From an uncultured Ferruginibacter sp. (lineage in GTDB: Bacteria; Bacteroidota; Bacteroidia; Chitinophagales; Chitinophagaceae), in assembly GCA_964645235.1 (NCBI GenBank), contig CAZYAT010000009.1, positions 9,374-73,373 of the forward strand: DNA of 64,000 nucleotides, read 5' to 3'. Under the pieces are notes generated by a model, which worked only from the letters and a program-made list of their open reading frames with translations, was not told the DNA's origin and made no database searches. The position numbers and the translations under genes are program-made. Below are positions 4,317-37,988 of this stretch, piece by piece; within the stretch, counting starts at the first letter, position 1, and the number at the start of each line of letters is the position of its first letter.

Positions 4317-5234
4317 TCAATTGGTAACGCTGTTGTTTGCTATTACCTTCCCCGGCTTCATCCTTTTCCACACGAGGTAAACCCCCGCTGCCAGCAGTAA
4401 CAAGGGCCAGATGCTGATCAGTCCTACAAACAGGTCGGCTACGAATGCGCCACCGGTTTTAAATGCCGCCGCAATCCGGGATGTAATACCGGGATGTTCC
4501 TCCGGTCCCACGTATCCGGCCGCAGGCTGAAAGAATGTGAGCTGGATGGTGCTGAATAATGCCTGCCGTGAAAGCGATTGAATACGACCTGCTGCCGACT
4601 CCAGTTCTTCCTGTATGTTGTTCACGCTGTTCTGTACCTGCAGCACGTCTTCCATGTTTTTCGATTGCTGGATGAGCTCCAGGTATCTTGCCCGCATCTT
4701 CTTTTTCGCCTCAAGTCTTGATTGGGTATCGATAATATCGGTGGTAACGTCTTCGGTACTTATCTTCCGTTCCAGCACTTTGTCTTCTTCACCGGACAAT
4801 TGATTGATCATGTTTTCAAACTGGTCTACCGGCACTTTAATGGTGATGACGGTTTCTGTTTTTTCTCCGCTGCTGTTCTGTTCTTCCTGGGCGATGTAAC
4901 CACCATATTGCTTGATGGTAGTATGAACGGTGTTGCTGAAATTCCGGAAGTTCTTCACTTCCACTTTCAGTGTTCCCGTTTTTATCATTTTCTTATCCCA
5001 ACCGGGATTGAGTGATGTGGGCTTTTGCAGCGGGGCTGCCGAATCGGCGAATACCGGTTGCGGGGGAGCTACGGGTATTTGTTGCTTTTCGTTATCCACC
5101 TTTGTTTGAGGAGGTTCGTACCCGGGTTTCAGTTCAATAAGATCGGCCGTCATCGCCTTTTGTTCACTGTTTCGGCTGCAGGAAAAGAAAATAACGGTAA
5201 GTAGCAGGAAGGCTGCAATTGGTTTTGTTTTCAT
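4317..5234 (-). CDS. DUF4349 domain lipoprotein
   Basis: Lipobox FFSC; KMIKTGTLKVEV, DVTTDIIDTQSRLEAKK coiled coil; C-terminal TM helix. Confidence 0.85.
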   Translation of the reverse strand: MKTKPIAAFLLLTVIFFSCSRNSEQKAMTADLIELKPGYEPPQTKVDNEKQQIPVAPPQPVFADSAAPLQKPTSLNPGWDKKMIKTGTLKVEVKNFRNFSNTVHTTIKQYGGYIAQEEQNSSGEKTETVITIKVPVDQFENMINQLSGEEDKVLERKISTEDVTTDIIDTQSRLEAKKKMRARYLELIQQSKNMEDVLQVQNSVNNIQEELESAAGRIQSLSRQALFSTIQLTFFQPAAGYVGPEEHPGITSRIAAAFKTGGAFVADLFVGLISIWPLLLLAAGVYLVWKRMKPGKVIANNSVTN

Positions 5235-5385
5235 AACAATGAGTTTAGATGAATGAGATACTCATTGATACGAAATGCATAAAAGATGTAACCGGGGGAA
5301 GATGTTAAATGAAATCAAAGATAATTTGGTGATTGCTTACTTTACAGGAGTAACGGATCTGGTGAAATACTAAATTATCAAATTG

Positions 5386-5796
5386 TCACTTCTCTCCCGC
5401 CATCTTCATAATAAGATCCCACTCCGCAGGCTTTACGGTTTGCACGCTCAGCCTTCCGAGGCGCACAAGGTCCATATCGGCAAAGCGCTTATCTGCTTTT
5501 AATACCGTAAGCGGAACCCGTTTCTTCAATGCTTTTACCGCTTTGATGTCAACAGCCACCCAGCGATCATCATCGGTGGTGGGATCAGGATAAGCTTCTT
5601 TCGCCACTTTGGCAATGCCAACGATCTCCACACCTTCGTTGCTGTGATAGAAAAGTACTTCATCCCCTTTCTTCATTGCATTCAGATTCAGCCGGGCCGC
5701 ATAGTTGCGTACGCCGCTCCAGCAGGTTTGTTTTTCTTTCGTCAGTTGGTCCCAGCTGTATGCCGCCGGTTCGGATTTTACTAGCCAATATGCCAT
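5386..5796 (-). CDS. EVE domain protein
   Basis: MAYWLVKSEP, WSGVRNYAARLNL, GDEVLFYHS, RLSVQ. Start set at 5796 instead of the 5922 of the ORF track. Confidence 0.92.
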   Translation of the reverse strand: MAYWLVKSEPAAYSWDQLTKEKQTCWSGVRNYAARLNLNAMKKGDEVLFYHSNEGVEIVGIAKVAKEAYPDPTTDDDRWVAVDIKAVKALKKRVPLTVLKADKRFADMDLVRLGRLSVQTVKPAEWDLIMKMAGEK

Positions 5797-5902
5797 GAGG
5801 AAACAAAAATTAAGAATGAATAATGAAGTATGAATACCGGTTTCAAATGTAACCATATTATCCATGCAACGATGTGATTTCAACTTTTTTTCCACGGAGT
5901 AA

Positions 5903-5926
5903 ATCCAATCTTCTTCCTGCACCGTA
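5903..5926 (+). promoter_or_regulatory. Putative ECF-sigma promoter of DUF4331 operon
   Basis: ATCCAA-N14-CGTA; same geometry recurs at 7670 (+) and 11690 (-). Confidence 0.65.
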
Positions 5927-5988
5927 ATTAATCCCGTTGTCGGCCTTACGACAAAAAAGCTAAAATCATTAATCTAAAAACAATTACA

Positions 5989-6654
5989 ATGAAAAGAAAA
6001 AAACTGCTGCTGGCAGCCATTGCTGCAGCAACACTGATCACCGGGGGTATCCTCTATGCGGCTGACCACATAGACACACCTGCTGTTACTGCTCAGCCCG
6101 GTGATATCACCGACCTGTATGTATTCCGTGCCCAGGACCCCAACAACCTGGTATTTGTTGCCAACACACAGGGATTGCTTTCCCCGGGCGGTACTGCTGC
6201 CGCCAAGTTCGACGAGAACACACTCATCGAATTCAATGTTGACAATAATGCCGACAATGTGGAAGACCTCGTCATTCAATGCAGGTATGATGCTGCTTCC
6301 AACAGTGTAAAGGTATACGGCCCTGTTGCACCATCTGAAAAAGGAACAAGAAGCAAGATCGAAGGAGATGCAAGCGCTTCGGTAACCGTAACCGCTTACG
6401 GAGCAGCATCACCCGTAATCGGTACCGGAACTGGTGGCGTCAAAGTATTCGCCGGGCCAAGGGACGATCCTTTTTTCTTCGACCTGAACCGCTATAAAGG
6501 CATACTGGCCGGTACCTATCCCGGCTTTGCCAACCCCGGTACCGACACATTTGCCGGCACCAACGTATTGAGCATCGTCGTGGAAGTTCCTAAAAACCTG
6601 CTCGGTACTTCCGGCAGTATCAATGTATGGCTTGAAACGAAAAAGAAGATCTGA
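5989..6654 (+). CDS. DUF4331-family secreted protein (N-terminal-half type)
   Basis: Signal peptide then ADHIDTP, DITDLYVF, VFAGPRDDPFFFD, DTFAGTNVLSIVVEVP. Confidence 0.85.
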   Translation: MKRKKLLLAAIAAATLITGGILYAADHIDTPAVTAQPGDITDLYVFRAQDPNNLVFVANTQGLLSPGGTAAAKFDENTLIEFNVDNNADNVEDLVIQCRYDAASNSVKVYGPVAPSEKGTRSKIEGDASASVTVTAYGAASPVIGTGTGGVKVFAGPRDDPFFFDLNRYKGILAGTYPGFANPGTDTFAGTNVLSIVVEVPKNLLGTSGSINVWLETKKKI

Positions 6655-6680
6655 TCCATCAACCAATAAAAAAGAAAAAA

Positions 6681-7208
6681 ATGAAAACAATAAAGTTATT
6701 AGCGATCGTATTAGGAAGCAGTTTGATCGCTGCATCCTGCAAAAAAAGTGACGACACCCCTGCTCCTACAGTCTACTACCAGCAGCAGGACCAGATGGGC
6801 CGCCCCGCCATCAATACTGTGTTCAATGTATCGGCAACAGACAAGGATGCGTTTAACGTAACGATCCCATCTGCACAGAACGCAGCGTTCCAGGCCAAAT
6901 TCCAGGCAAGATTGCTGGCACTGAATCCAGGCTACACCACCAACGCCCTCACGTTAAATGCATCTGCATTTACCGGTGTGCTGGCAACCGATGTACTCGG
7001 TGTTTCCACCACGGGCGTAACCACCTTCTTCGATGGCACCAATGTGCTCACCGGAAGAAAACTGGATGATGACGTGATCGATACCGAATTGCTGCTCATC
7101 TTCGGCGGCCCCACAGGCGCCGGCAACCCGGCCCTCACCAAAGACAATGTGAATGCGAACGATAAAGCCTTCACAGTATCCTTCCCGTACCTGGCAAATC
7201 CCTGGTAA
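6681..7208 (+). CDS. DUF4331-family lipoprotein (C-terminal-half type)
   Basis: Lipobox IAASC then KKSDD; DQMGRPAINTVF, GRKLDDDVID, FPYLANPW. Confidence 0.8.
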   Translation: MKTIKLLAIVLGSSLIAASCKKSDDTPAPTVYYQQQDQMGRPAINTVFNVSATDKDAFNVTIPSAQNAAFQAKFQARLLALNPGYTTNALTLNASAFTGVLATDVLGVSTTGVTTFFDGTNVLTGRKLDDDVIDTELLLIFGGPTGAGNPALTKDNVNANDKAFTVSFPYLANPW

Positions 7209-7224
7209 TAGAACAGATAGCAGG

Positions 7225-7251
7225 AAAGGCGGAGAACATTCTCCGCCTTTT
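7225..7251 (+). terminator. Intrinsic terminator after DUF4331 pair
   Basis: AAAGGCGGAGA-acat-TCTCCGCCTTTT. Confidence 0.85.
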
Positions 7252-7286
7252 ACTTCAGGAATGGTCACCACGTCTAACCAATCACA

Positions 7287-7670
7287 ATGAAACGATTTCT
7301 TTTAATACTATCACTTAGCATCCACATTGTTATTACAGGCAATGCACAACAACCATCCACGCCTGCAACACCAACCCCTTCTCCAGCGTATCACCGCCAC
7401 CCGCTTCATTTTTCCAGGCATTCCCTCAACCGGTATTTTGCTGGTGAAACGGCTAAGAATTCCATTAAAGAGATCATTAATGAAGGGTACAGTTTACCCG
7501 TACGGCGAACGGTATTAATGGCTATATCCCTGTCGTACCCTGACCTGCTGGAGAATGCCATTAACCGGTGCAGGCCCAACCTGGTAAACACGTATGACGA
7601 TGAAGTACCGGAAATAACCGATGATGCCACGATGCTGTTCAGGGTCAAACTTGTTTTTCCTTTCCGATGA
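7287..7670 (+). CDS. Hypothetical secreted protein
   Basis: 127 aa; Sec signal MKRFLLILSLSIHIVITGNAQ; Pro/Thr linker; no family recognised. Confidence 0.6.
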   Translation: MKRFLLILSLSIHIVITGNAQQPSTPATPTPSPAYHRHPLHFSRHSLNRYFAGETAKNSIKEIINEGYSLPVRRTVLMAISLSYPDLLENAINRCRPNLVNTYDDEVPEITDDATMLFRVKLVFPFR

Positions 7671-7693
7671 ACCAATTCCCCTGATGCTCCGTA
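7670..7693 (+). promoter_or_regulatory. Putative ECF-sigma promoter of HupE/UreJ gene
   Basis: AACCAA-N14-CGTA, 28 nt before the ATG at 7722. Confidence 0.65.
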
Positions 7694-7721
7694 TGTATAG
7701 TCATTAAACAACTGCTGAATC

Positions 7722-8399
7722 ATGCAAATACATAACCGCCGGTATCCACGCAGGACATTCGTGGTCTTCTTTGCCTTATTGTTGTCGATCAATCCTCTTT
7801 TCGCCCACGACGTGGTGGGAGAACTGGAAAAGATGAACGGCACGGAAGCGGCAATGCTCTACCTCAAATTGGGTTTTGCACATATCATCCCATTGGGCCT
7901 GGACCACATAGTCTTTGTATTGAGTTTATTCCTGCTCAGTCCGAAGTTAAAACCCGTACTCTGGCAGGCTACCGCATTCACAGTTGCTCATTCCATTACC
8001 CTCGGGCTGGTTATGTTCAATGTATTCACTCCCTCACCTAAGATCGTTGAGCCTATCATAGCCTTATCCATCTTATACGTTGCACTCGAAAATATATTCT
8101 CGCCGGAATTGAAAAAATCAAGGCTCGGTATCGTGTTCCTTTTCGGGCTTGTACACGGGATGGGGTTTGCCAATGCATTGGGCGAACTGGGTTTGCCAAG
8201 GAGTTCCTACCTCACGTCTTTACTAATGTTCAACCTGGGTGTAGAGGTCGGACAGGTAGTAGTGATCCTTTCCGCCTTTTTGTTGTTCGGAAAATGGTTT
8301 GGACAAAAGTCTTATTACCGTAAAACCATTGTCGTTCCCCTTTCCGTCATGATCGCATTGACGGCGCTGTACTGGACAGTTCAGCGGCTGTTCTTTTAG
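7722..8399 (+). CDS. HupE/UreJ-family membrane protein
   Basis: GLDHIVF, FTVAHSITL, FGLVHGMGFA, FNLGVEVGQ; multiple TM helices; FA|HDVV predicted mature N-terminus. Confidence 0.9.
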   Translation: MQIHNRRYPRRTFVVFFALLLSINPLFAHDVVGELEKMNGTEAAMLYLKLGFAHIIPLGLDHIVFVLSLFLLSPKLKPVLWQATAFTVAHSITLGLVMFNVFTPSPKIVEPIIALSILYVALENIFSPELKKSRLGIVFLFGLVHGMGFANALGELGLPRSSYLTSLLMFNLGVEVGQVVVILSAFLLFGKWFGQKSYYRKTIVVPLSVMIALTALYWTVQRLFF

Positions 8400-8427
8400 G
8401 CAGTTACCAAACAAAGCAAGAAACGGG

Positions 8428-8458
8428 TTTGAACCGGCCGTTCACATACGTAGCTTTG
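8428..8458 (+). promoter_or_regulatory. Bacteroidota sigma-A promoter (-33/-7)
   Basis: TTTG at 8428-8431, 19-nt spacer, TAGCTTTG at 8451-8458 just before the ada/ogt ATG. Confidence 0.75.
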
Positions 8459-8462
8459 CTGT

Positions 8463-9296
8463 ATGATGAACGATTATGAACGTATAGAAAAAGCCATCGT
8501 CTACTTAAAAGACAATTTCAGGGAACAACCCGACCTGGATGCGGTGGCCAAACAGGTACATCTCAGCCCCTTCCACTTCCAGCGCCTGTTCAAGGAATGG
8601 GCTGGTGTTAGTCCGAAGAAATTCCTCCAGTTCATCAGCGTGGAATATGCCAAGGGATTGCTTAAGCAGGACCTTTCCTTATCCGATGCCAGTTTCAAAA
8701 CGGGGCTATCGGGCACCAGCCGGTTGCACGACCTGTTCATCAGCATCGAAGGCATGACGCCGGGAGAATTCAAAAATGGTGGCAGCACATTACAGATCAA
8801 TTACAGTTTTGCCGAAACACCATTCGGAGATATCATACTTGCATCCACCCTTAAAGGCATCTGCCAGCTTGCATTTGTAAAGAACGAAAAAGAGGGGCTT
8901 CACAACCTTCAATTCAATTTCGCCAACGCTGTATTGAAACAGAAGACCGACCTGTTGCAACAGGATGCCCTGCGTTTCTTTACCGGCGACTGGACCGACC
9001 TGCGAAAAGTGAAGCTGCACCTGAAAGGGACTCCCTTTCAACTCAAAGTGTGGGAATCGCTTTTACGAATACCCTTTGGAAATGTATCCACCTATGGAGC
9101 CATTGCCGAAGGCATCCAGCAGTCCGGCGCATCAAGAGCTGTTGGTACGGCCATCGGCAATAATCCTGTTGCTTTCCTCATCCCCTGCCACCGGGTGATC
9201 CGCTCATCGGGCATAATAGGCGATTATCATTGGGGAGGCGACAGAAAGACCGCGATACTTGGATGGGAGGCCGCCAGGCTCAGCCCGGGTAATTAA
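8463..9296 (+). CDS. AraC-HTH / methylated-DNA--protein-cysteine methyltransferase (Ada-Ogt type)
   Basis: HLSPFHFQRLFKEWAGVSPK HTH; GTPFQLKVW; active site IPCHRV. Confidence 0.93.
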   Translation: MMNDYERIEKAIVYLKDNFREQPDLDAVAKQVHLSPFHFQRLFKEWAGVSPKKFLQFISVEYAKGLLKQDLSLSDASFKTGLSGTSRLHDLFISIEGMTPGEFKNGGSTLQINYSFAETPFGDIILASTLKGICQLAFVKNEKEGLHNLQFNFANAVLKQKTDLLQQDALRFFTGDWTDLRKVKLHLKGTPFQLKVWESLLRIPFGNVSTYGAIAEGIQQSGASRAVGTAIGNNPVAFLIPCHRVIRSSGIIGDYHWGGDRKTAILGWEAARLSPGN

Positions 9297-9361
9297 TTCA
9301 GCAAGTTCCGGGTTGTTGACTCTCCACAGCCAACGGAGCTTTGTTTTCTAAATCAACACAC

Positions 9362-9850
9362 ATGAAAAAATTCAGGATCATTCCTCTCAGCGAAGAGTAT
9401 GCAGCTAAGATACGCTCAACGCGTATCGACGATTTCGGCCATGAAGCGACCGAGCAGGTGGCCAAAGGCAAAGGCCCATGCCGCGTTTCATTAAAACCAT
9501 TCAGAATTGGTGAAGACAGGCGGATACTCCTCTCCCATAGTCCATTCGAGATCGACAATGCATTCAACCAACCCGGGCCGGTATTCATCCATGCGGAGGA
9601 AGTGGAAGCGTATAAAGACATACATCGATTCCCGCCGGAGATCAAGGCAGATAAAGAGAATTTTCCTTTGTCGCTTATCGGTTACAGCAAAAACCAGAAG
9701 ATGGTGTTTACGAAGTTAGTAGGCGATGCCGATGTGGATGAGCTCATAGCCGAGATATTCGGGTCCCACCCTTATATCGATTACCTGCATGCCCGTAATG
9801 CGGAGGCCTGTTGTTATATCTGCCGGATAGAAAGGGAATCTGAAAGCTAA
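9362..9850 (+). CDS. DUF1203 domain protein
   Basis: GPCRVSL, LLSHSPF, PGPVFIH, YLHARNAEACCYICRIER; start moved to MKKFRII. Confidence 0.8.
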   Translation: MKKFRIIPLSEEYAAKIRSTRIDDFGHEATEQVAKGKGPCRVSLKPFRIGEDRRILLSHSPFEIDNAFNQPGPVFIHAEEVEAYKDIHRFPPEIKADKENFPLSLIGYSKNQKMVFTKLVGDADVDELIAEIFGSHPYIDYLHARNAEACCYICRIERESES

Positions 9851-9937
9851 GCGTTCCAACGAAATACTTAGTATAACATTCCTTTCACGTATGGAAGATT
9901 ATTTTAGGAGGACATTTCACCCTATAAACTTTCTACA

Positions 9938-10381
9938 ATGAAACTTCTCCTTTTTTCCATGTTGCCTGCTGTTTTTTTATTACCGGTAAATCAACAGGCT
10001 GAAAACAGCGTTAACCCGGCACACTCTTTTAACGTCCCTGTTGTGGAGAAAGAAATCACAACACTTAATTTCCAGGACAAAGATGAACCGGGGAAAATGA
10101 GGTCAATCGTTTTTAAGAGCCAGGAGTACTGCCGGGCCGAGATCCCTTATGAATTTGAATTCGCTGTTCAATTCAAGGTCGTGAGCGCCAAGGTATATTT
10201 TACTGGAGCCAATTTTACTGGTATTGAAAAGGGCACTATCAACAGTAACAGCCTTAAACCGATCAAGCACCTCATGGATCGATGTATTCCGGGGACAAGA
10301 GTTGTATTTGATGATGTAAAAGTGATCGGGCCGGATAAAAAAATCAGGACAATACCAGGGATCAACCTGCTGTTGTACTGA
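9938..10381 (+). CDS. Secreted protein resembling a stand-alone GldM/PorM C-terminal domain
   Basis: Signal peptide; FKVVSAKVYFTGANF ... RCIPGTRVVFDDVKVIGPDKKIRTIP resembles the GldM C-terminus by recall. Confidence 0.55.
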   Translation: MKLLLFSMLPAVFLLPVNQQAENSVNPAHSFNVPVVEKEITTLNFQDKDEPGKMRSIVFKSQEYCRAEIPYEFEFAVQFKVVSAKVYFTGANFTGIEKGTINSNSLKPIKHLMDRCIPGTRVVFDDVKVIGPDKKIRTIPGINLLLY

Positions 10382-11671
10382 TCATTCAAGCTCTTTTTCC
10401 AGGTCGCTGACCATCCCGGGGCTGAGGTCGTACCTGTTCCGGTATGCAGCCTTAAAATATTCTTTTGCATTATAGCCTTTCCCAAGCCCCTGCATGAACC
10501 TGCCCATCCAGTAAAGTTCCAGCGCTTCCAACGGCCTGCCTGAGACGTATTGTTCATAGATATCCTGCGCCTCGGAGCTGCGATGATCATTGTATAAAGT
10601 CCACACATACCAGGCATAGGTCTGTGGCGTGGAGCGGTTCAGCAACTCCCTTTGAGCGACCGACCTTGCTTTCCCGGGTTCATTCAAGATGTCTGTATAC
10701 ATTTCAATAAGATACCTGCTGTACATATTGCCATATACGGGCTGGGTAACTACAGACAAAAAAGCGGTTGCATATTTTTTCTGGAGGAGATCATCGCCTT
10801 TTTTCTGGGCTACCTGAACCAACCTGTAAAGTGCTTCCGGTGAATGGCTCTGGGTTTGTACAAACCGGAATATCCTTTCTGCGAGAGAATCGTTGTGGTC
10901 GTGAACCAATGCGATCCAACCCATGCCCATGAGTGAATGAAGGTCGGCCTTATTGAGGTCAACAGATCCGGCATACAGATCAAAAGCCCGCTGCAGGTTA
11001 CCGCTGTGCAGGTTCAGGTCGGCCTCATTGGATAAAGCTGCCTGTTTCAGGTATACCTCATTGCCTGCAGCATCAGCAGCTCTTTTCATGGCAGCAATAG
11101 CACTATCGAGTTGGCCCTTATAATGAGCAAGTTTTGCATAACGGAAGTTGTATCCATAGTCATTCCTGTTTGCGATCTTTTTCAATTCATTTTCTGCAAG
11201 CAGGTAATTGCCTTTTTCAAATGCAACATCAAAGGATGCGCCTGCGGATTCATAAGGTTTCAGACCTGCTTGTTTTGCTTCAGCAAGCAATGAATCGGCT
11301 TGTCCGAAGCGGTGCTGGAGGATGCTGTTACGAACAAGGGCTAATAAAGGGGCCGGTTCTTTATGCCGGTAAGTTTCATTTACCAGGTGCAGCATGCTGT
11401 CTGCAGCGAGCAGGTCGTGTATATCTCCTCCAAGGTGAAAATGCTTTACGAGGCAGGAAGCATATTTTAATTCGCTTACCAACCCGGGATTTCGAGGGTC
11501 GACCCGGTTACGCCAGAACTGCATGTCTGTTTCATTCGCTTTTTTTACCGATCCGATATCAAAATGGGTAATGATGCTGTCAACAAATGGAGCCTGGACG
11601 ATCTGCTTTCGATTGTTATTACAGGAAGAAAGGATCAATATGACCAATATTCCTTTGATTAACTGTTCCAA
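10382..11671 (-). CDS. TPR lipoprotein of the type that accompanies DUF4331 genes
   Basis: TTG start; lipobox LSSC; GDIHDL...RNSILQHRF, RYAKLAHYKGQLDSAI, NRSTPQTYAWYVW. Confidence 0.75.
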   Translation of the reverse strand: MEQLIKGILVILILSSCNNNRKQIVQAPFVDSIITHFDIGSVKKANETDMQFWRNRVDPRNPGLVSELKYASCLVKHFHLGGDIHDLLAADSMLHLVNETYRHKEPAPLLALVRNSILQHRFGQADSLLAEAKQAGLKPYESAGASFDVAFEKGNYLLAENELKKIANRNDYGYNFRYAKLAHYKGQLDSAIAAMKRAADAAGNEVYLKQAALSNEADLNLHSGNLQRAFDLYAGSVDLNKADLHSLMGMGWIALVHDHNDSLAERIFRFVQTQSHSPEALYRLVQVAQKKGDDLLQKKYATAFLSVVTQPVYGNMYSRYLIEMYTDILNEPGKARSVAQRELLNRSTPQTYAWYVWTLYNDHRSSEAQDIYEQYVSGRPLEALELYWMGRFMQGLGKGYNAKEYFKAAYRNRYDLSPGMVSDLEKELE

Positions 11672-11689
11672 GGTTAAATTTTGGATATA

Positions 11690-11713
11690 TACGAAGAATG
11701 GGAACGGTTGGTT
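11690..11713 (-). promoter_or_regulatory. Putative ECF-sigma promoter of TPR lipoprotein
   Basis: Minus-strand AACCAA-N14-CGTA ending 18 nt before the TTG start. Confidence 0.65.
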
Positions 11714-11767
11714 CAGTTATGAGAGCGATTTTGAAGTCCGGTTTTCCTTTGTACCTGGGGAATCTTA

Positions 11768-12490
11768 TTATTCCCAGCCGCTTGCCAGCACGTCGGCAAT
11801 ATGCATGGTCTTAAGAGAGAGGTTCTTTCCTTTGATATATCCCTCCAGCTGCATCAGGCAGCTCATATCGGTGGAGATAAGGTATTCGGCTCCGGTTGCC
11901 AGCGCATTATTCACCTTTTGGTCGGCCATACCGGCCGAAATGGCATCGAATTTTACAGAAAAGGTCCCGCCAAATCCGCAGCAGGTTTCCACATCGTTCA
12001 TCTCCACCAGCTCAAGTCCTTTTACATGGTTCAACAGTTTTCGTGGGCCTTCTTTTATTTTACATTCCCGCAGGGCGGCGCAGCTATCGTGGTAGGTTGC
12101 TTTACCATTCAATACCGCCCCGTAATTCTCTATCTTCAATACTTCCGTAAGAAATTCGGTGAACTCATAGATACGTTTTCCCAGGTCTTTCACCTGGTTG
12201 TGCTGAGAAGAGTTATCGAATATCTTACCATAGTAGTTCCGTACAAAACCCACACAGCTTGCACTGGGGCCAACGATGTAATCCACCCCGTCGAAATCTT
12301 TAAGGAACTTACTGCATACAGCCCTGGCCTCATCGCGGAAGCCGGCGTTGTAAGCAGGTTGCCCGCAGCAGGTCTGGTTGGTATTGTACAGCACTTCGCA
12401 GGTCGCTTTCTCCAGCACTTTTACCATATTGAAAGCGGTTTGGGGATAAAGCTGGTCAACGAAACAGGGTATGAATAACTGAACTTTCAT
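11768..12490 (-). CDS. LutA/YkgE-family CCG-domain Fe-S protein
   Basis: Two CCG domains: CCGQP..SASC and YHDSC..CCGFGGTF..DMSCL. Confidence 0.88.
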   Translation of the reverse strand: MKVQLFIPCFVDQLYPQTAFNMVKVLEKATCEVLYNTNQTCCGQPAYNAGFRDEARAVCSKFLKDFDGVDYIVGPSASCVGFVRNYYGKIFDNSSQHNQVKDLGKRIYEFTEFLTEVLKIENYGAVLNGKATYHDSCAALRECKIKEGPRKLLNHVKGLELVEMNDVETCCGFGGTFSVKFDAISAGMADQKVNNALATGAEYLISTDMSCLMQLEGYIKGKNLSLKTMHIADVLASGWE

Positions 12491-12940
12491 TTATTTCAAT
12501 GTCTTTAAATATTCTTTTACCGAAAGTGCTTTATCTGATACCGGGTCGTACACTTTTATTTCCTTCGTTTTCGTGTTCAAGTAAAAATGATAATAGGTTT
12601 CGAAACGTTGTGGTCCGTTGTATCCTGCCAATATGGATATCACTTCCGCATTACCCCCTGTACTGTCCTTGATAAAACTGATCCCCTGTCGATGTTCTGT
12701 AAGCGAATCAATGTAAAGGTTGCTTTTGAGAACGAAATCCAGTTTTAACAGGTTGTTGACGATCTCCAGTTCATCCTTGGTATTCCCCAATTTCTGCAGG
12801 TAAGCCGTTGCTTCCTTTGGCGGTACCGGCGGAATTGAATCCTGCAAAACAGCGGTTTCCCCCTGGCCAGGCGCTTTGCTTTCGCTGTTGCAGGCAGTAA
12901 GAAAGATGATCATTGCGAAAAGCAACAGGTACCTCATCAT
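12491..12940 (-). CDS. Hypothetical lipoprotein
   Basis: Lipobox FLTAC; 149 aa; packed between ribH and lutA-like gene. Confidence 0.7.
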   Translation of the reverse strand: MMRYLLLFAMIIFLTACNSESKAPGQGETAVLQDSIPPVPPKEATAYLQKLGNTKDELEIVNNLLKLDFVLKSNLYIDSLTEHRQGISFIKDSTGGNAEVISILAGYNGPQRFETYYHFYLNTKTKEIKVYDPVSDKALSVKEYLKTLK

Positions 12941-24104: not shown

Positions 24105-25286
24105 TTATTGAATATTCTCGATAACCATTGCACTGGCGCCGCCGCCGCCATGGCAGATCCCGGCAGCTCCGTATTTCGCATTGTTCTGCTTCAGCACATT
24201 GATCAGTGTAACCACGATCCTTGCACCACTGCAACCTAAGGGATGGCCCAATGAAACCGCCCCCCCATTCACATTCACCTTTGATGGATCAAGCTTCATC
24301 CGGCGGCTGTTCTCGATACCCACCACTGAAAAAGCTTCATTCAGCTCCCAATAAGCAATGTCTTCCATCTTCAGCCCCGCTTTTGAAACTGCTTTAGGAA
24401 CCGCCAGGGCAGGTGCTGTGGTAAACCAGGCAGGTTCCTGTGTGGCATCGGCGTAAGATAATATTTTCGCAATGGGTTTCAAACCCAGGGCCTCAGCTTT
24501 TTCCTTACTCATCAGTACCAATGCTGCAGCGCCGTCGTTCATGGTGGAAGCATTGGCGGCTGTAACTGTGCCGTCTTTTTGAAACGCCCCTTTCAATGAG
24601 CTTATCTTATCAAATTTTACTTTGTAAGGTTCTTCGTCTTTTGCTATAACAACCGGGTCACCTTTTTTCTGGGGTATCTCTACCGGAACGATCTCTTCAT
24701 TAAATTTTCCCGATTCAATGGCTGCCTGGCTTCTTTTATAGCTTTCAATGGCAAAGGCGTCCTGTTCTTCGCGGGTAACGCCGCAGGTGCTGGCACAGAG
24801 CTCGGCAGCATTACCCATTGCTTTGCCATCGTAGGCATCCGTTAAACCATCTTTGGCAAGGCCGTCTATTAACTGAACATTACCGTATTTATTGCCCCAG
24901 CGCAAACTATCCGAATAAAACGGGGCATTGCTCATACTTTCCATCCCACCGGCGATCACCACATCGGCATCGCCTAACAGAATGCTTTGAGCACCCTGGG
25001 CAATTGCTTTCATAGCACTGGCACAAACCTTGTTTACTGTCGTACTGCAAACGCCATCGGGCAAACCGGCATAACGGGCAGCCTGGTGGGCCGGCGCCTG
25101 CCCAAGATTGGCCTGCACAACTGAACCCATCAGGACTTCTTCTACCACTCCAGGTGCGATCCCGGCCTTTTTCATCGCTCCTTTGATGGCGATGGCCCCC
25201 AGCTGGGTGGCGCTGATATCCTTTAAAGAACCTCCGAAGCTTCCAATAGGGGTACGGACGGCCGAAATAATATACACTTCTCTCAT
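24105..25286 (-). CDS. Acetyl-CoA C-acyltransferase (thiolase)
   Basis: VNKVCASAMKA, NEAF, GHPLGCSG, ICHGGGG. Confidence 0.96.
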   Translation of the reverse strand: MREVYIISAVRTPIGSFGGSLKDISATQLGAIAIKGAMKKAGIAPGVVEEVLMGSVVQANLGQAPAHQAARYAGLPDGVCSTTVNKVCASAMKAIAQGAQSILLGDADVVIAGGMESMSNAPFYSDSLRWGNKYGNVQLIDGLAKDGLTDAYDGKAMGNAAELCASTCGVTREEQDAFAIESYKRSQAAIESGKFNEEIVPVEIPQKKGDPVVIAKDEEPYKVKFDKISSLKGAFQKDGTVTAANASTMNDGAAALVLMSKEKAEALGLKPIAKILSYADATQEPAWFTTAPALAVPKAVSKAGLKMEDIAYWELNEAFSVVGIENSRRMKLDPSKVNVNGGAVSLGHPLGCSGARIVVTLINVLKQNNAKYGAAGICHGGGGASAMVIENIQ

Positions 25287-25306: not shown

Positions 25307-25314
25307 CAAATATA
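25307..25314 (-). promoter_or_regulatory. sigma-A -7 box of thiolase
   Basis: Minus-strand TATATTTG. Confidence 0.7.
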
Positions 25315-25454
25315 CGTATAAGCCTCTTAGCGGATCAAGCCGCACGAACATGAATACGCTGTTCATTTTTTGTGCTTGCAAATGACAATTCTTGTTTGTA
25401 GCTTGTTTTCCCCCATTATTATTCTGCTGCATTTCAAAACTAAATTTTCGAAAA

Positions 25455-36938: not shown

Positions 36939-37955
36939 TTAAAGACCTATGGTCATTTTTTTCTGGCGAAGTTTTCCCAATGAAGGATCCAGTTCAATTG
37001 CCATATCGCACATTTGCTGGCCCCGTTGTGTCTGGCCTTTTTTCTGGAAACAAAGACCAGCCTGGTACAATGCTTTAGCATCATTCTTGTCGGCCTCGAG
37101 CAGTTTCTGACATATTTCCAATGACTTGTCGTATTTCTTTACGTCGTAATAGGCCTGGGCCATGTCACGGAGAATATCTTTTTCACCGGGACGGCGTTCA
37201 AAAACCTGCAACAAAAGCTTTTCACCTTTTTCGTACTCGCCGCTGTACATATAAGCAAATCCGAGGTTCTCGTTAAAGTCGTTGCTTTGCACAAACCCCT
37301 TTTCTGCAGCACTGGTGAAAGCGGTAACAGATTCTTTGAACCGGTTATTATTATAATACAGTACTCCAAGTTCAAAGAACCAACTGCTGCGTTCCCCATT
37401 CAGTTTTACTGCTTTCTCATACCAGGGTATCGCTTTGTCTTCGTACCCCATTTCCCAATAGTTACGTGCGAGCGTATAGGTCAGTTCTGCATCCGAAGGG
37501 TCCTTTTCCACCAGTTCCAAAAGTTTTTTCTCTGCTTTTGCATAATCCTCCATCTGAAAATAAGAGAGGGCGATAATGCGATCTGCATTGGGGCATGACT
37601 TACATTTTTCGGCCATGTCAATCGCCTTTTGATAATGACGGTAATTATAATTCAATTCCACCAGTTCCTTGATAGCAAGATCATTACCCGGGTCCAGTTC
37701 AAATGCTTTTGTAAAGTTCTGTTTGGCTTCATCAATACGGCGCATCTCCAGGTTGGCATACCCGTTTTCGAGATAGGCCATTGTATAGTTCGGGTTTTGC
37801 TGGATGGCGTCCTGGAAGTATTTACTGGCGAGTAGATAGCGTTTAGCCCCTTTTTCCTCGATCCCCTTTTGCAGATAATAGGATGAACTGTCCGTCTTTT
37901 GAGCACATAAGGCAGTAGTCAGCAGTAACAAAGGGATTGTCAGGACTTTTTTCAT
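36939..37955 (-). CDS. Exported multi-TPR protein
   Basis: Signal MKKVLTIPLLLLTTALCAQ; about 8 TPR-like repeats. Start moved from 37982. Confidence 0.85.
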   Translation of the reverse strand: MKKVLTIPLLLLTTALCAQKTDSSSYYLQKGIEEKGAKRYLLASKYFQDAIQQNPNYTMAYLENGYANLEMRRIDEAKQNFTKAFELDPGNDLAIKELVELNYNYRHYQKAIDMAEKCKSCPNADRIIALSYFQMEDYAKAEKKLLELVEKDPSDAELTYTLARNYWEMGYEDKAIPWYEKAVKLNGERSSWFFELGVLYYNNNRFKESVTAFTSAAEKGFVQSNDFNENLGFAYMYSGEYEKGEKLLLQVFERRPGEKDILRDMAQAYYDVKKYDKSLEICQKLLEADKNDAKALYQAGLCFQKKGQTQRGQQMCDMAIELDPSLGKLRQKKMTIGL

Positions 37956-37988
37956 AATAATGGTTACGGGCACAAATATCATTCCGGT

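Follow-up and report, generated by a model that had tools for sequence, protein, structure and literature searches.

We report that two operons or genes on one strand and one gene on the other, within a 64-kb stretch of DNA from an uncultured Ferruginibacter sp. (the whole stretch is hereafter called the window), are preceded by copies of a single bipartite, promoter-like motif. They are a two-gene operon for the halves of a DUF4331 protein, a hupE gene for a HupE/UreJ-family membrane protein, and an opposite-strand gene for a TPR-like lipoprotein. The motif is conserved upstream of the same gene set in related genomes, and is physically linked there to a locus encoding a SigK-like extracytoplasmic function (ECF) sigma factor and an RskA-like anti-sigma factor. 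We consider it likely that the three sites are promoters for one SigK-type sigma factor, of an ECF18/19-like clade, that is restrained by an RskA-type anti-sigma factor, with both genes lying outside the window. Promoter function, recognition by a SigK-like factor and the presence of the pair in this genome are what we infer from sequence comparison.

Three sites share one bipartite motif

Both strands of the window were searched for motif matches. The pattern AWCCAA-N14-CGTA, proposed in a preliminary description of this DNA, occurs exactly three times, at 5903-5926 (+), 7670-7693 (+) and 11690-11713 (-), where 0.28 matches are expected. These are the copies that had been described, and their identical spacing and placement close before start codons also stand, with gaps of 62 nucleotides (nt) to the ATG at 5989, 28 nt to the ATG at 7722 and 18 nt to the TTG at 11671. 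Orthologous sites bear out the bipartite core and the CGTA, and show that conservation of the trailing AA of the first box is partial, with A at 64/105 and 44/105 sites. The refined core, RAWCY-N16-CGTAnnT or, written out, (A/G)A(A/T)C(C/T)-N16-CGTAnnT, is the strict pattern counted below. At all three places (Table 1) it is sense-oriented, has a 16-nt spacer and ends 15-59 nt before the start codon.

The refined motif has four matches in the window, compared with 0.67 expected. The fourth (37460-37487, -) is intragenic, within a TPR protein gene at 36939-37982, and fits that chance expectation. A look-alike at 25310-25336 (-), GATCC-N15-CGTATAT upstream of a thiolase gene (24105-25286), has the wrong spacing; we rejected it as a regulon member, as a housekeeping TATATTTG box makes up its 3' portion.

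Housekeeping sigma-A promoters of Bacteroidota have the form TTTG-N19-21-TAnnTTTG. Such promoters hold a similar position before neighbouring genes, for example ada, but the three sites have neither the TTTG -33 box nor the TAnnTTTG box, and other letters are conserved there. A scan of positions 5200-12600 found TAnnTTTG boxes only before ada (8451), the EVE gene (5851, -) and the DUF4349 gene (5323, -), in agreement with the earlier observation that the ada gene has this box and the three motif-bearing genes do not.

Conservation of the motif in relatives

Using HupE as the probe, we fetched 80 loci from other species of Chitinophagaceae and Sphingobacteriaceae. The order DUF4331N (N-terminal half), DUF4331C (C-terminal half), HupE and a convergent TPR gene, with a small open reading frame (ORF) and a TonB-dependent receptor gene before HupE in many loci, is kept across Chitinophagaceae and Mucilaginibacter. 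The motif stands upstream of DUF4331N in 47 of 49 loci and upstream of the TPR gene in 41 of 48, always 41-50 nt before the start codon; its background rate is 0.012 matches per 96 nt. No copy was found upstream of DUF4331C in 50 loci. HupE has a motif in 20 of 78 loci, all of them loci that lack a TonB receptor gene immediately before HupE. Thus, hupE seems to need a promoter of its own where no receptor gene lies directly upstream, as in the window.

The form of the motif is highly constrained. The spacer between RAWCY and CGTA is 16 nt long at 105 of the 108 orthologous sites; when those 105 are aligned, the box columns hold 1-2 bits of information, compared with 0-0.5 bit for the spacer columns. 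A T three bases past CGTA, which was not part of the search pattern, is present in 105/105. AATCC and AAACC swap freely between orthologous promoters, which indicates that both forms belong to one recognition class. Additionally, Gibbs sampling of orthologous upstream regions, a de novo check that the preliminary description had called for and that was run here with the window sequence left out and no pattern supplied, converged on the same positions, giving aAaCc-N16-CGTA.aT for the TPR regions and AtCCa-N15-CGTAa.T for the DUF4331 regions.

These data bear on the possibility that the three matches are due to chance, or are variants of the housekeeping promoter (TTTG ... TAnnTTTG). The pattern was defined post hoc, and one of 100 dinucleotide shuffles of the window reaches at least three AWCCAA-N14-CGTA matches. 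CGTAnnT also includes TAnnT, the first five positions of TAnnTTTG, and the near-match before the thiolase gene is really a housekeeping box. Set against this are the absence of both housekeeping boxes from the three sites, the bases after the invariant T, which are not TTG, and above all orthologous conservation across ~50 genomes together with blind rediscovery of the motif. We regard this explanation as effectively refuted.

Strict matches number 179 over the 80 loci, compared with 13.9 expected, and ~160 fall in front of genes from twelve recurring families: DUF4331N (44), the TPR lipoprotein (40), the small His-rich ORF that precedes the TonB receptor (21), HupE (19), a second TPR family (12), PorV-like proteins (7), a family of 134-amino-acid (aa) proteins to which we return below (the orf127 family, 5), TatA (4), TonB receptors (4), TatC (2), fasciclin (2) and ferritin-like proteins (Ferritin_2) with a twin-arginine translocation (TAT) signal (2). 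The motif-bearing targets have signal peptides or are membrane proteins. Sites before TatA, TatC, TAT-signal Ferritin_2, PorV-like outer-membrane and second TPR genes occur in related loci L040, L041, L042, L050, L055, L060-L065, L073 and L079. The presence of the motif before these extra families in other Chitinophagaceae suggests that the regulon exceeds the three units of the window in size and in variability. The sites had been described as a mini-regulon; the shared motif class holds, and the size was understated, as relatives add the His-rich protein and TonB-dependent receptor, fasciclin and others.

A SigK-like sigma factor locus carries the motif

In three of the related loci (L045, L051 and L053), an ECF sigma gene and an RskA_C gene (PF10099, 6.7e-17) lie directly upstream of the motif-bearing DUF4331 operon. 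Pfam identifies Sigma70_r2 and r4 in the sigma factor of relatives, and PF10099 in the anti-sigma genes of L051 and L081-L083. Against PDB sequences, the best match of the sigma factor is Mycobacterium tuberculosis SigK (4NQW, 1.3e-21). Its orthologues are 72-77% identical and widespread in Ferruginibacter. Ferruginibacter sp. SUN106 and another genome have the order sigma, rskA, fasciclin, with a motif before the fasciclin gene, and the SUN106 assembly has, besides this ECF-RskA-fasciclin locus (L081), a hupE that carries the motif (L060).

We extended the comparison to 83 SigK-like ECF loci, taken from genomes and metagenomes. An rskA homologue is present in 75 of the 83, adjacent fasciclin genes carry the motif in 35 of 36 cases, and there are 129 strict matches where 6.9 are expected. 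These results accord with the earlier proposal of a cognate, possibly SigK/RskA-like pair encoded outside the window, in that comparative evidence ties the motif to such a pair in relatives. At L051:3723-4899 (-), divergent genes for DUF1295 and DUF2177 membrane proteins adjoin the SigK-like gene. In M. tuberculosis, too, a DUF1295 gene lies beside sigK, so that the neighbourhood may be old and conserved.

A further copy of the motif (AAATC-N16-CGTAAGT) lies inside the sigma gene itself, in 77 of 78 distinct genes (for example at L081:10300-10327, L082:10300-10327 and L051:~5330-5357). Its boxes are read as the codons Lys-AAA, Ile-ATC, ... Ser-TCC, Val-GTA and Ser-AGT. Codon use there is close to fixed, with AAA for Lys in 69/69, ATC for Ile in 78/78, GTA for Val in 77/77 and TCC for Ser in 70/74; the five internal-motif codons rank among the 8 lowest synonymous entropies of 147 codons, and flanking codons vary freely. 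Such frozen synonymous sites indicate selection on the DNA itself. The internal motif is probably a sigma-dependent promoter for rskA, an arrangement that would give negative feedback. The region upstream of the sigma gene has a housekeeping-like TActTTCG box.

A motif conserved upstream of genes might, in principle, not be a promoter and might serve an ordinary transcription factor as a bipartite operator or activator site. The two boxes here are dissimilar, which makes the motif neither palindromic nor a direct repeat. The sites keep a strict orientation to the gene, a fixed 16-nt spacer and a distance of ~15-60 nt from the start, with no other recognizable promoter. The motif also resembles an ECF group consensus and is embedded in an ECF sigma gene. 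We judge a transcription factor site to be very improbable.

Which sigma factor may read the sites

Several observations weigh against assigning the sites to the SigK-like pair. No ECF sigma, RskA or fasciclin gene occurs within the 64-kb window, and the sigma/anti-sigma pair is adjacent in only 3 of the 80 HupE loci. The best NCBIfam model for the sigma factor is SigK, but the score is 121.5 bits, compared with a cut-off of 226. A conserved cysteine pair is found in 94% of ECF18 and 56% of ECF19 members (PMC7509140); the sigma factor examined (P0223) has no cysteine, and the positions aligned to the ECF18/19 redox pair are not Cys. GAAC/AAC -35 boxes with CGT -10 boxes are common to many ECF groups and Bacteroidota have ~22 ECFs per genome (PMC7826278), so another or an additional ECF may read the sites. 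As for transcripts, the only metatranscriptome match in public data is a single 139-nt piece inside the DUF4331 operon, the other carriers being DNA metagenomes, and there are no public RNA runs for the cultured relative Mucilaginibacter sp. OK098.

These points bear most directly on the explanation that the sites are ECF-type promoters read by an ECF other than the SigK-like/RskA pair, or by several cross-talking ECFs. A GAACC -35 box with a CGT -10 box is generic, several ECF groups having CGT in the -10 box (PMC13492112 Table 4), the SigK-like pair is seldom adjacent, and other ECF genes lie near some loci (L066:3180-3680, L051:1654-2217 and L043). However, none of those ECF genes is a neighbour that recurs from locus to locus. 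The SigK-like locus has two full copies of the motif including the unusual CGTAnnT, one of them under synonymous-site selection, and spacing and -10 box are identical across all target classes. We therefore think it unlikely that a different ECF accounts for the sites, and retain the SigK-type, RskA-restrained sigma factor as the favoured reader. The system would work like SigK-RskA, a likeness of class that is drawn from best matches, with the cysteine pair missing and strict ECF18/19 membership no more than possible.

A proposed regulatory scheme and its implications

Under the favoured explanation, a membrane-spanning RskA-type anti-sigma factor would hold the sigma factor in check at the membrane until an envelope signal relieves the inhibition and frees it. 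The -35 box (A/G)A(A/T)C(C/T) would then be recognized by region 4 of the sigma factor and, 16 nt further on, the CGTAnnT of the -10 box by region 2, with transcription starting a few bases downstream of CGTAnnT. Three units would be switched on together: the DUF4331N-DUF4331C bicistron, as far as the terminator at 7224-7251, hupE, and the opposite-strand gene for the TPR-like lipoprotein. In relatives, the same sigma factor may also drive the small His-rich protein and TonB-dependent receptor, the 134-aa secreted protein and the fasciclin gene next to rskA, and the internal promoter in the sigma gene would transcribe rskA, closing the feedback loop.

That these genes form an envelope or metal-acquisition/handling module is a guess. 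Metal acquisition or handling is suggested by the HupE/UreJ permease, the TonB receptor, the His-rich protein, the TAT-exported ferritin-like protein and TatA/TatC. As a more tentative and wider reading, which we hold to be possible and no better than that, a SigK-type ECF in Bacteroidota may co-regulate fasciclin with a conserved uncharacterized envelope module consisting of the split DUF4331 pair, the His-rich protein with the TonB-dependent receptor, the HupE/UreJ permease and the TPR lipoprotein. To this module some genomes appear to add TatA/TatC, the TAT-exported ferritin-like protein and the PorV-like protein. If the module does serve metal acquisition or handling, this would hint at what the SigK-RskA-fasciclin (MPT70/MPT83) axis senses and does, and DUF4331 would gain a first role.

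ECF regulons beyond a few model organisms are mostly unknown. Here, one promoter motif would define a compact regulon conserved in Chitinophagaceae and Sphingobacteriaceae, and genome comparison alone suffices to tie it to a specific sigma/anti-sigma pair. Through this regulon, four families of unknown or poorly known function, DUF4331, HupE_UreJ_2, the TPR lipoprotein and the small His-rich protein, are linked to the fasciclin targets of mycobacterial SigK. Its predictions can be tested cheaply in culturable relatives, and the motif may be used by annotation pipelines to predict co-regulated genes.

Features of the window

Gene identities in the region agree with Pfam for the DUF4331 operon, the HupE/UreJ gene and the ada gene, as first described (Table 1). 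The TPR label stands in part: the 429-aa protein itself has no Pfam match, and an orthologue (L007) gives weak TPR matches. This protein also had no match among PDB sequences, and NCBIfam has no models for DUF4331N, DUF4331C, HupE or orf127.

Table 1. Promoter-like sites, genes and terminator around the DUF4331 operon, in window coordinates
Feature	Coordinates	Strand	Basis and remarks
P(DUF4331), promoter-like site	5902..5929	+	AATCC-N16-CGTAATT; ends 59 nt before ATG 5989; orthologous site in 47/49 loci
P(hupE), promoter-like site	7669..7696	+	GAACC-N16-CGTATGT; ends 25 nt before ATG 7722; overlaps orf127 stop codon
P(TPR), promoter-like site	11687..11714	-	GAACC-N16-CGTATAT; ends 15 nt before TTG 11671; orthologous site in 41/48 loci
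DUF4331 N-terminal half, 221 aa, signal peptide	5989..6654	+	Pfam PF14224, 6.2e-29, profile positions up to 236 of 421
DUF4331 C-terminal half, 175 aa, own lipoprotein-type signal, second operon gene	6681..7208	+	PF14224, 5.9e-14, profile 250-421
Intrinsic terminator, hairpin then TTTT	7224..7251	+	-20 kcal/mol, z = -5.06; 0/200 shuffles fold as well
orf127, 127 aa, diverged copy of 134-aa secreted protein	7287..7670	+	28-49% identity to relatives' 134-aa ORFs
HupE/UreJ-family membrane protein (HupE_UreJ_2), putative metal permease	7722..8399	+	Pfam PF13795, 2.1e-44
Ada-like protein	8463..9296		AraC-type helix-turn-helix plus MGMT (Pfam)
TPR-like lipoprotein, 429 aa	10382..11671	-	Synteny; weak TPR matches for orthologue L007; convergent with hupE in most relatives

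DUF4331N and DUF4331C are separate ORFs in all ~50 related loci, each with its own signal or lipoprotein sequence. This conservation of the split argues for a two-subunit arrangement and not a frameshifted pseudogene. Searches for relatives of the protein were negative: none was found among PDB sequences, where a two-domain laccase (E = 0.05) was rejected as not significant, and a Foldseek search of the PDB with an AlphaFold2 model (predicted local distance difference test score, pLDDT, 70) returned nothing below E = 0.17 or above a TM (template modelling) score of 0.27. In a literature search over 8.3 million full texts the term 'DUF4331' was not found.

The strong terminator that had been noted near 7225 proved to be a hairpin well beyond the stability of shuffled sequences, and is predicted to end the DUF4331 transcription unit. 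Equivalent hairpins occur in L001, L005, L014, L029 and L052.

Between this terminator and hupE lies orf127, which has no Pfam match and was not called as a gene on Logan contigs; its coding status is doubtful. An origin as a leftover of the small ORF found before the TonB receptor was considered, and was rejected because orf127 and that ORF show no similarity. By identity orf127 is a diverged member of the 134-aa secreted family, whose ORFs in the same five loci each have their own motif. The window copy has no motif promoter, and seems to have lost it. The window also has no His-rich ORF (~121 aa) and TonB-dependent receptor gene (~750 aa) between DUF4331C and hupE, the place that they occupy, behind a motif promoter of their own, in most relatives (for example L007:7059-9982). 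The window lineage has presumably lost this unit, with the orf127 family standing at 7209-7721 instead.

Additional sequence elements were noted in leaders and at promoters. The housekeeping promoter of ada consists of TTTG at 8428-8431, a 19-nt spacer and TAGCTTTG at 8451-8458. Its -7 box ends 4 nt before the ATG at 8463, and the mRNA may thus be leaderless or translation may start at a downstream ATG (8466 or 8478). The DUF4331 leader has an inverted repeat at 5936-5954, GTTGTCG-N6-CGACAA. As an RNA hairpin this repeat was unsupported, with a consensus energy of -4.5 kcal/mol and zero compensatory pairs, and an Rfam scan of 5700-12000 gave no match. The same leader (5965-5980) has a ATCATTAATCTAAAAA block ~20 nt before the ATG, and ATTAATC is present in 25 of 45 orthologous leaders. 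In the Ferruginibacter clade, related ACTTTAACC blocks lie 3' of the -10 box at the hupE and TPR promoters. Both kinds of block could be the site of a second regulator or a translation signal; these are possibilities.

Composition and the best protein matches place the window in a Ferruginibacter-like member of the Chitinophagaceae. Metagenomes containing the window come from activated sludge, sludge, soil and riverine sources. Extension past the window through contigs encoding an identical DUF4331N protein yielded only contigs of at most 5.2 kb.

Comparison with known systems

We conclude that the system is probably of a known type, an ECF regulon of the SigK/RskA kind with an ordinary mechanism; we did not find the phylum and target set described. 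The layout of the sigma locus recalls sigH-rshA of Corynebacterium glutamicum, in which a sigma-dependent promoter within the sigma gene, or shortly past its end, transcribes the anti-sigma gene. In both, an ECF-type motif lies within the coding sequence of the sigma factor and ahead of the anti-sigma gene, a layout that would give negative feedback without raising sigma levels. The difference is that the evidence for the internal promoter here is synonymous-site conservation alone, in 77 of 78 genes.

ECF214, ECF18 and ECF19 form one clade with a common RskA-like anti-sigma factor (PMC7826278), and the ECF18 consensus from ECF Hub is GCATCC / CGTAT (PMC13492112 Table 4). The motif had been taken as typical of ECF sigma factors on account of its two boxes and CGT-containing -10, and the fixed 16-nt spacer and resemblance to this consensus uphold that. 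With the ECF18 group, to which RpoP of Cupriavidus metallidurans belongs, the motif has ATCC (-35) and CGTA(T) (-10) in common, and the sigma factor is likewise paired with an RskA-like anti-sigma factor. The sites differ in a -35 box that is A-rich upstream (AAATCC, AAACC or GAACC, not GCATCC) and in a T three bases past CGTA that never varies. AAACC and GAACC variants are common among the -35 boxes, and the upstream GC of ECF18 is replaced by A-rich sequence.

The closest parallel is SigK-RskA of M. tuberculosis. The products of mpt70 and mpt83 are fasciclin-domain proteins. Mycobacterial SigK drives these genes (PMC7509140, PMC4105308), and the signal that activates it is still unknown (PMC7509140). 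The Ferruginibacter system differs in its host phylum, Bacteroidota, and in a sigma factor that has no cysteines and falls below the NCBI SigK cut-off. The main promoter of its sigma gene looks housekeeping, with the motif inside the gene, and the DUF4331 pair, HupE, His-rich protein and TonB receptor, and TPR lipoprotein have not been reported for SigK. The likenesses are nonetheless several. In both, an ECF sigma gene has the gene for an RskA_C membrane anti-sigma factor directly downstream, and the Ferruginibacter sigma factor has SigK as its nearest relative of solved structure. A fasciclin gene is a direct neighbour and motif-bearing target in relatives, much as mpt70/mpt83 are targets of SigK, and both systems would control a small regulon of exported or envelope proteins.

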